From a virus (Duplodnaviria; Heunggongvirae; Uroviricota; Caudoviricetes): a stretch of DNA of 9,651 nucleotides. Made by a program: the position numbers. Below are positions 3,001 through 6,000 of this stretch, piece after piece; the stretch's first letter is position 1; each line of letters begins with the position of its first letter. The stretch lies in the IMG/VR virus record IMGVR_UViG_2529292715_000010, positions 1 to 9,651 of that record; one strand, 5' to 3'.

Positions 3001-6000
3001 GCTGGACGTCAGCGACACGCTCCGGCGCATGGATGAAGACGTGCGGGCAAAGGTGTATGCGGCGGCGCTGCATACGGTCTACGGGTACATCGATTATCTG
3101 GCAATGAATATGCTGCCTGACCTGTGCGATGAGTCATGGCTGGCGCGACATGCTGCGATGAAACGGTGTCCGCGCAAGGGGGCCACGGCTGCCAGCGGGT
3201 ATATGCGCTGGGAAGGTGTCAGCGATGGCCTGAAGGTGACTGCCGGGAGCGTGATTCAGCGCGATGACCTGGTTCAGTACACGGCAACTGCCGATGCAAC
3301 CAGCTCCGGTGGTGTCCTGCGTGTGCCGATCACTTGCTCAACTACAGGCGCGGTCGGTAACGCTGACGACGGTACGGCATTAATCCTGGTCACGCCGGTG
3401 AATGGTCTGCCGTCTTCCGGTGTTGCAGATACCCTGACAGGTGGATTTGATACTGAAGAGCTGGAAACGTGGCGCGCCCGCGTCATTGAGCGGTATTACT
3501 GGACGCCGCAGGGCGGGGCTGACGGGGACTATGTCGTCTGGGCTAAAGAAGTGCCCGGCATTACCCGTGCATGGACATACCGTCACTGGATGGGAACGGG
3601 AACTGTTGGTGTGATGATTGCCAGCAGTGACCTGATTAACCCCATTCCGGAAGAATCAACGGAAACGGCGGCAAGACAACATATCGGGCCACTGGCCCCG
3701 GTGGCAGGCTCTGATTTGTATGTGTTCAGGCCGGTGGCGCATACGGTGGATTTTCATATCCGCGTGACGCCGGACACACCGGAAATACGGGCTGCCATCA
3801 CCGCGGAGTTGCGTTCGTTCCTGCTGCGTGATGGTTATCCGCAGGGAGAACTGAAGGTATCGCGTATCAGTGAGGCGATTTCCGGTGCGGCACCGTCATT
3901 AACCCGCGTTCATCAGCGTGCGGATGCCCTGATGCGGGAGCTGGATCCGCGCACCACCACCGAACTGATAAATCGCTGGGAGCGTCTGTGCGGCCTGCCG
4001 GATGAATGTATTCCGGCGGGAACGCAGACCCTTCGCCAGCGTCAGCAACGGCTGGATGCGAAGGTTAACCTGGCGGGCGGCATCAACGAGGATTTTTATC
4101 TTGCACAGCTTGCTGCCCTGGGCAGACCAGATGCCACCATCACGCGATACGACAAAAGCACGTTCACCTGCTCATCGGCCTGTACTGACGCGGTGAATGC
4201 GCCGGAATGGCGGTATTGCTGGCAGGTCAACATGCCAGCCGCCACCAACAGCACCTGGATGACATGTGGCGATCCCTGTGATTCCGCACTGCGTATCTGG
4301 GGTGACACCGTTGTCGAGTGTGTGCTTAACAAACTCTGCCCGTCGCATACCTACGTAATTTTTAAATATCCGGAGTAATCCATGCATCGTATAGACACGA
4401 AAACCGCGCAGAAGGATAAGTTCGGCGCGGGTAGGAACGGTTTTACCCGTGGTAACCCCCAGACCGGCACACCTGCCACCGATCTGGATGATGACTACTT
4501 TGACATGTTGCAGGAGGAGCTTTGCAGCGTGGTGGAGGCATCCGGTGCCAGCCTGGAGAAGGGGCGGCATGACCAGCTGCTTACCGCGCTTCGTGCGCTG
4601 CTGTTAAGCCGCAAGAATCCGTTTGGCGATATCAAATCGGATGGCACTGTGCAAACGGCTCTCGAAAACCTTGGTTTGGGAGAAGCAGCTAAAAGGAATG
4701 TAGGTACAGGGGCGAATCAGATACCTGATATGAGCCTGTTCGCGTCAATTAATACCGTAACGGCTGCTGCGCAAAAATTTCCGTCTGGATTAATTTTACA
4801 GTGCGGTCAGTTGAATGGTGCCCCGAATGTATCTTCAACATACGGGATGAGGTTCCCGATGACGTTCTCAAGAGTCATTGCTGTCGTAGTTACATTGAAC
4901 GTTACTGGCGCGGCTGGGCAGCCGACTGTATCGGCGACAAGTGTCCAGAACACTGGATTTAATATTACTGTGTCGCCCGGTTCAGGATACGGTTCATCTG
5001 CTGATGCGTATTACATTGCAATGGGATATTAACGAAATGTCATATTTTTATTCTGCATCGACAAACGGATTTTATTCGACTGAATTTCACGGCACCAATA
5101 TTCCTGATGATGCAGTGGAAATCTCGGAATCAGAGTGGAAAACACTGATTAACTCACAGAGTGTCACAAAAATGATTACCTGTGGTGAGGACGGTCACCC
5201 TGTCATTGTTGACCGTCCTTCTCCAACACCAGAACAATTAGCCTTAATAAATGATGAAAAGAAATCTGCACTGATAGCAGAGGCAACGAATGTAATAGCT
5301 CCGCTTCAGGATGCGGTTGATTTAGGTATGGCAACAGATGATGAAACGAAACTATTACTGGCATGGAAAAAATATCGGGTGCTATTGATGCGTGTTGATA
5401 TAAAAAATACAGAGTGGCCGAAAAAACCAGAGGAAAATAAATAAGGGGGCGTTATCGGATGAAGAAAGAGGCCGTTAATTATAACTGCAGATGCCCCCCC
5501 CTAAGTTTCGGGGGGGTTATTGATGCAAAACTTAGATCAATAACATTAAGTAACTACCATTCAACATTAAGGCTGTTTTTTTATTAATGTCATCGTCCAT
5601 CCTGCAGGGTTGAACTTGAAAGAATACGATTCTCCTGGTGCTAAGCTTTCAAATTTTTTAACTTGCTCTTTCCACCCGTAATCTGGGAGTGGGGTAAGAT
5701 TGAAAAAATATAAACATGAGATTAACGATGTTGTATATAACATCCATGGTAGGAATTTAAAGTGCAAGTGGGAAATATAGTTTAAGAAGTAAACCAATAC
5801 AGAGTACCATATGATTGTTGGTATGACAGAATATCTTCCTCCGCCATGAATTAATAATGGCCATTGCTCACTTGTAGATGAAAGCATTGGTTTTGCTAGT
5901 GAAAACGTTAATGTTAGTATTGCGAAAACTATTGCCGAGCGCATGGGGTAATTGGAAACAATAAATGTAAAAATAGTGATGGAAAGACAAATCATTGTAA

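Follow-up and report, generated by a model that had tools for sequence, protein, structure and literature searches.

A solitary pixL-type DNA-invertase crossover site in the tail-fibre gene of an SfV-type prophage, probably the relic of a lost inversion switch

In a serine invertase switch, an invertase dimer binds each of two inverted 26-bp sites, a Fis-bound enhancer within the invertase gene, usually located in its 5' part, assembles the complex, and both sites are cut at the central dinucleotide, so that the segment between them can be turned. The inversion fuses the constant part of a tail fibre (Sc) to either of the receptor-binding, variable C-terminal parts (Sv or the inverted Sv'), each of which has its own Tfa chaperone. 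The G segment of Mu (Gin, gix sites) and the C segment of P1 (Cin, cix sites) are complete working switches of this kind, and a recombinational enhancer is annotated in P1 cin. A further example is the P segment of e14 in Escherichia coli K-12, with the gene order stfP/ycfK-tfaP-tfaE-stfE, the sites pixL and pixR and the invertase gene pinE. Kirigo et al. (2025, PMC12529663) showed by experiment that PinE, PinQ and PinR invert this 1797-bp segment, whose repeats they give as TTGGTTTGGGAGAAGG and CCTTCTCCCAAACCAA. These 16-bp inverted repeats enclose exactly 1797 bp in the e14 locus of our set (L009, 5306-7102), which fits the published end-points. Here we describe a single copy of the left site of such a switch, which lies in the tail-fibre gene of a 9,651-nucleotide stretch of Caudoviricetes DNA (IMG/VR record IMGVR_UViG_2529292715_000010, positions 1 to 9,651; this whole stretch is called the window below).

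The pixL-type crossover site is found at 4659-4684 on the + strand (CTCTCGAAAACCTTGGTTTGGGAGAA) and consists of two inverted 12-bp half-sites, the outer CTCTCGAAAACC and the inner GGTTTGGGAGAA, with a TT core between them. This central dinucleotide (4671-4672, + strand) aligns with the annotated crossover point of P1 cixL (between AACCT and TGGTT) and would be the point of strand exchange. The site has one mismatch to the invertase-site pattern TTCTCNNAAACCNNGGTTTNNGAGAA. When the window was shuffled with its dinucleotides preserved, none of 200 shuffles matched this pattern with three or fewer mismatches. Scored against the consensus TTMTCNNAAACCNNGGTTTNNGAKAA, the site reaches 19/20 and thus equals or exceeds gixL, gixR, cixL and cixR as taken from the Mu and P1 records (18-19/20). 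It is identical in all 26 positions to pixL, the left site of the e14 P segment (L009, 5278-5303), and the stretch from its central TT to the second base after the inner half-site (4671-4686) shares 15 of 16 positions with the published e14 inverted repeat TTGGTTTGGGAGAAGG (PMC12529663). Due to the identity with pixL and the e14 inversion experiment, the window can be said to bear a copy of a proven Pin site. The original prediction, made from the sequence of the window alone, had proposed a gix/hix/pix-like 26-bp site at this position, and the alignments to the Mu G, P1 C and e14 P sites bear this out.

The site is read in frame as (A)LENLGLGE within a tail-fibre open reading frame (ORF) of 216 aa (4382-5032, + strand), and the fibre proteins S of Mu (...IQNLGLQE) and P1 (...IQYLGLRE) use the same frame across their own sites. 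It closes the constant N-terminal part Sc (101 aa, 4382-4684, + strand), which is the counterpart of e14 stfP/ycfK and of the yfdL region of CPS-53. Of 5426 complete E. coli genomes, 1866 contain Sc (query 4382-4685), commonly in several copies per genome (up to four), and most matches stop at query positions 302-305. The variable part Sv (4685-5032, + strand) carries a Gp53-like_C domain (aa 132-216, Pfam PF21882, E=2e-13) and is followed by the only tail-fibre assembly gene, tfa (5037-5444, + strand; Pfam Caudo_TAP, E=1e-27). The G+C content falls from 0.561 in Sc to 0.471 in Sv and 0.395 in tfa, and at third codon positions from 0.634 to 0.422 and 0.316, so the anticipated change of base composition at the site is real, as is the position of the site at the end of the conserved fibre domain. 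Coding constraint alone is insufficient to account for the match, because a DNA sequence for this peptide would score at least 19 with a probability of 1.2e-5 (all 110,592 synonymous ways to write the nine codons, weighted by the codon usage of the window). By its consensus match, by its sequence, which is that of a recombining site, and by its in-frame position at the constant/variable junction, it belongs to the Gin/Cin/Pin/Hin crossover sites.

Besides the left site, the e14 P segment shares with the window the Sc sequence (~97% DNA identity), the reading frame and the central TT. Unlike the window, e14 has the inverted tfaE/stfE cassette and pixR (TTCTCCCAAACCAACGTTTATGAAAA) just upstream of pinE, and its variable part is a different one, the similarity to the window ending at 4693. 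Mu G and P1 C agree with the window in site architecture, in the position of the site at the Sc/Sv junction and in frame, and cix also in the TT core. However, their half-site sequences and fibre proteins differ, and both are complete.

The sequence of the window is that of a serotype-converting prophage of the SfV type, defective and with degraded genes. Positions 1-8905 match the Shigella flexneri serotype-converting phage SfV with 97.3% identity over 91%, and the genes stand in the order of SfV-type phages, i.e. tail module, fibre, tfa, gtr(type), gtrB, gtrA and int. Nothing else of a switch was detected. No other 26-mer in the window reaches 14/20 and none elsewhere in the complete SfV genome reaches 15/20, and every inverted match to the inner half-site in the window has at least 3 mismatches in 14. 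A 14-mer at 5219 was considered as an inverted half-site; with 3/14 mismatches and less than 13/20 for its 26-mer, it was rejected as a chance match. Tblastn searches with PinE, Gin and the invertase of phage SKA5 (up to E=10) returned no hit below E=0.8 from either the window or SfV, and with the same cut-off the window yielded no second tfa and no minus-strand tfa or Sv. A single site, one tfa and no invertase homologue were also the outcome for the complete SfV genome (37,074 bp). An inverted second site, an Sv'/tfa' cassette and an adjacent serine invertase, as a functional invertible host-range switch has them, are thus lacking in the window, and the prediction that neither partner site nor alternative cassette nor invertase would be met before the gtr genes holds. 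No comment on the solitary site of SfV-type phages was found in the searchable literature.

The relatives of the window were surveyed in 114 loci (genomes and viral contigs), to which the window and six further loci were added; 92 of these have the site in the context of the constant part. Complete switches are present in 22 of the 92. In 12 others the right site is present but the contig ends ahead of any possible invertase, and seven have only a fragment of an invertase gene (44-83 aa matched), six of them together with a right site. An orphan site followed by gtr genes was seen in 17 loci. The remaining 34 comprise 21 contigs too short to classify, eight orphans with neither inverted tfa nor invertase within 4.5 kb, four loci in which an inverted tfa stands without an invertase, and the scaffold join of phage vB_EcoM-689R6 (L001, ON470584.1). 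The layout of the complete switches (e14, SKA5 and the 22 surveyed loci) is always an identical left site, Sv, tfa, inverted tfa', inverted Sv', right site and invertase. Phage SKA5 illustrates the relationship, since its tail module is 97.7% identical to that of the window up to 4732 and includes the identical site; past it comes a switch of exactly this layout, with TTCTCCCAAACCAACCTTTCAAATAT as its right site, and after the invertase a dinI-like gene and int. The site copies of all 11 SfV-type loci are identical to pixL, and the variants that occur elsewhere are common to several locus classes.

In 689R6 the site is joined to mcrA and a reversed invertase, which was first read as a large inversion made by Pin. 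This was rejected as an assembly join, because a run of 10 N (~11052-11061) lies 210 nt past the site. The record stops 27 nt upstream of the invertase start; apparently the assembly failed across the invertible segment and its pieces were then joined artificially. In two IMG/VR contigs (L113, 10169-10194, and L114, 2183-2208) all 26 bp of the left site, its outer half included, recur as a perfect reverse complement in the right site, which suggests that a second, inverted Sc copy flanks the segment or that two fibre genes took part in an inversion.

Between the complete switches and the window stand sister phages with remnants of the distal half. CPS-53 (KpLE1), SfIV and SfII resemble the window in phage family, orphan site and downstream gtr and int genes. 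Unlike the window, all three have kept part of the inverted tfa'. In SfIV it is 92% identical to e14 TfaE and interrupted by ISEhe3, in K-12 CPS-53 it is truncated, and in SfII (L126) unannotated fragments of it are found at 2431-2701 (- strand). SfII also has a 39-aa stretch (3954-4070, + strand), likewise unannotated, and the tfa' fragments and this stretch flank an acyltransferase gene and an insertion sequence. Such stretches of 36-39 aa, which lie between tfa and gtr in SfII-type loci, match residues 74-112 of the SKA5 invertase with 54-58% identity (54% for the 39 aa of SfII), and the one in SfII is probably a relic of an invertase, not a gene. A neighbouring 'transposase' of the SfII-type loci was considered as a serine recombinase and rejected, as it is a DDE enzyme. 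SfV, SfI and the window retain nothing past tfa. The right-hand break in the window falls in the last 15 codons of tfa (5400-5444, + strand), which are unlike the cassette in complete switches. The similarity of the window tfa to the cassettes of SfIV and of the E. coli strains ML35, Rb-23 and AW1.7 (see below) stops at 5400, and the 3' overlap of tfa and inverted tfa' in SfIV and the complete-switch loci starts just past the point that matches 5400.

The site is also a point at which fibre cassettes have been exchanged. The sequences upstream of it in the 92 loci all belong to a single family (median identity 97.1% over 277 nt), and the 200 nt downstream fall into 28 sequence clusters. The similarity to the window stops at 4678-4687 in 49 of 87 loci. 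The report on SfI (PMC3636060) states that the homology to e14 stops at SfI nt 17,234, with no mention of pin or inversion; calculated from the match coordinates, this is 1 nt past the site. The Sv-tfa cassette of the window itself (4660/4668-5400) recurs with 96-98% identity in 18 further E. coli genomes that have no SfV-type constant part, four of which were inspected: ML35, Rb-23, AW1.7 and the plasmid pGMI14-004_3. In the P2-like prophages of ML35 and Rb-23 the cassette is fused to a P2 H-like fibre, and ML35 also has a tfaE and an Sv' in inverted orientation, a right site and an invertase that shares 86% identity with PinE. The copy in AW1.7 is silent, has no promoter and abuts the invertase gene. 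As far as the outer half-site, the left flanks in these three chromosomes (L128, L129 and L130) have no relation to the window; from the central TT on, their sequence is the same as that of the window. The fourth case, pGMI14-004_3 (NZ_CP028194.1; L131, 2476-6926), is a 48.7-kb E. coli plasmid with phage tail genes and repA, in which the window cassette ends a 629-aa fibre. Downstream of this fibre lie a tfa' and two fibre fragments, all inverted, and a recombinase, and the plasmid may be a phage-plasmid with a multi-cassette inversion system. The invertible segments of ML35, AW1.7 (P2-like) and pGMI14-004_3 thus have the same cassette joined at the same site, but differ from the window in their P2 H-like constant part (470-629 aa), partner site and full-length invertase. 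These exchanges may have been made by an invertase or by homologous recombination in the conserved flanks; the junction would be the same in either case, since a switch works only if both of its cassettes retain the inner half-site.

The original prediction had left the choice between the footprint of a former invertible host-range switch and cassette exchange by recombination at the site, in either case with a single fixed fibre C-terminus and Tfa as the outcome. Both halves find support, the former in the complete switches of e14, SKA5 and the 22 loci and the relics in SfIV, CPS-53 and SfII, the latter in the 28 Sv clusters and the three unrelated left flanks. The comparison of the fibre C-terminus and Tfa with those of relatives maps the breakpoint to the site. 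Since the match beats the coding expectation and homologous fibres do recombine there, the prediction stands on both counts.

We consider it the best explanation, with a probability of roughly 0.85, that the site is the left crossover site of a Pin/Gin/Cin-type switch from an e14-like ancestor, the distal half of which has since been lost, and that it is now a relic. This explanation builds on the identity with pixL, the missing partner and enzyme, the relics in sister phages and the occurrence of the same cassette in live switches elsewhere. The site would have been inherited unchanged from the ancestor, and the SfV-type lineage would have lost both inverted elements (tfa' and Sv'), the right site and the invertase together with its enhancer. 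The break would lie at about 5400, in the last codons of tfa, with the gtr cluster and int now directly following. The present role of the site would be only to code for LENLGLGE between the constant part and the receptor-binding domain of a fixed fibre. Without a partner or an enzyme in cis it is unable to invert anything, and it is presumably inert at present. Its persistence can probably be put down to the youth of the lineage (~3% divergence) and to its coding for part of the fibre. Loss, not gain, is the simplest reading of the direction of change. Three points weigh against this explanation. The direction of loss rests on the relics in sister phages, and no fragment of tfa' or invertase is detectable within the window itself. 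The orphan copies of the site are no more decayed than those in complete switches, a comparison to which ~3% divergence over 26 bp gives no power. Finally, the host genome may supply a Pin-type enzyme and further pix sites in trans, as in K-12, which has e14 and the orphan site of CPS-53.

The last point leads to a different reading, in which the solitary site is still used. The Pin of a co-resident prophage (of the type of e14 PinE, Qin PinQ or Rac PinR) would occasionally pair it with the pix sites of other prophages, and the orphan pixL of SfV- and CPS-53-type prophages would be a live docking point for the movement of cassettes between unrelated phages (Mu-like-tailed, P2-like or phage-plasmids) or for large chromosomal inversions. 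Pin enzymes do work in trans on the e14 segment (PMC12529663), and inversion still occurs in a prophage whose own invertase is truncated (PMC4134206). Potential partners exist in the multiple Sc copies of many genomes, including K-12-like genomes with both e14 and the CPS-53 orphan, and the cassette junctions lie exactly at the site. However, homologous exchange in the conserved flanks, with selection keeping the inner half-site, would be just as likely to give such precise junctions. It is established, moreover, that wild-type invertases need two inverted sites and an enhancer in one supercoiled domain, and distant or intermolecular partners are disfavoured. In public E. coli genomes, with a CPS-53 query, Kirigo et al. 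(PMC12529663) found inversions in e14 only. We therefore regard continued use of the site as unlikely, and a docking role for the orphan copies as equally so.

It is less probable still that the lineage never had a switch, i.e. that the SfV-type arrangement is ancestral, the site is conserved linker coding and invertases were added later elsewhere. The lack of any tfa', Sv' or invertase fragment in the window and in SfV would agree with this, as would the ..LGL.E peptide that is conserved across the fibres of Mu, P1 and e14. Yet a truncated inverted tfa' and the probable invertase fragment occupy the same place in SfIV, CPS-53 and SfII, and the window tfa leaves the cassette at 5400, just ahead of the tfa/tfa' overlap of complete switches. 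The DNA-level match is far beyond what the peptide demands, and AW1.7 holds the same cassette in a silent position beside an invertase. That the match is due to chance or is a by-product of codon choice has nothing in its favour except the shortness of the site, and can be considered refuted by the shuffled sequences, the full identity with pixL and the codon-level probability.

With the site taken as the relic of a switch, the short fixed tail fibre of the SfV family is explained: the gtr cluster sits where complete relatives hold the second half of the switch, namely tfa', Sv', right site and invertase. The locus also offers a clean natural case of one Sv and Tfa cassette circulating among Mu-like-tailed, P2-like and plasmid-borne phages with its junction at an invertase site. 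For annotation, the lesson is that a perfect invertase site alone does not make an invertible segment. The understanding of invertase systems is unchanged by the site, which is one isolated example of a familiar class of element and a product of ordinary phage evolution.

The remainder of the window shows how far the prophage has decayed. Its + strand carries Mu-like tail and baseplate genes, the tail-fibre ORF and the one tfa, and its - strand gtrV, gtrB, gtrA and int. About 166 bp of SfV (15997-16162) are deleted at window ~3874-3889, between the near-identical 16-bp repeats GGCGATTTCCGGTGCG and GGCGATTGCCGGTGCG. As a result, the gp47-like (Baseplate_J) and gp48-like genes are fused into one ORF of 483 aa (2927-4378). 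A gp45-like ORF (1968-2378) stops early, with 136 aa versus 182 aa in SfV.

All three genes of the gtrV-gtrB-gtrA O-antigen glucosylation cluster (5567-8196, - strand), assigned by the match to SfV, are disrupted. GtrA (7838-8196) and GtrB (6916-7838) each align to the SfV proteins in two frames, i.e. the genes are frameshifted, and gtrV is split among three ORFs. At 6602-6718, gtrV contains 11.7 error-free head-to-tail copies of the 10-bp unit TTTGATATGG, which is present as a single full copy in SfV, and the 100 extra nucleotides from this expansion shift the reading frame. As the unit is not a multiple of three, the expansion looks like the slipped-strand switching of serotype genes, or like simple decay.

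The integrase gene is a remnant that covers only aa 236-387 (8461-8915, - strand; tblastn with SfV Int). It is broken by an insertion sequence that starts at ~8905, where the match to SfV stops. An ORF at 8948-9427 has rve integrase-core domains, and many Stx2 phages carry copies of this insertion sequence with 99.6% identity.

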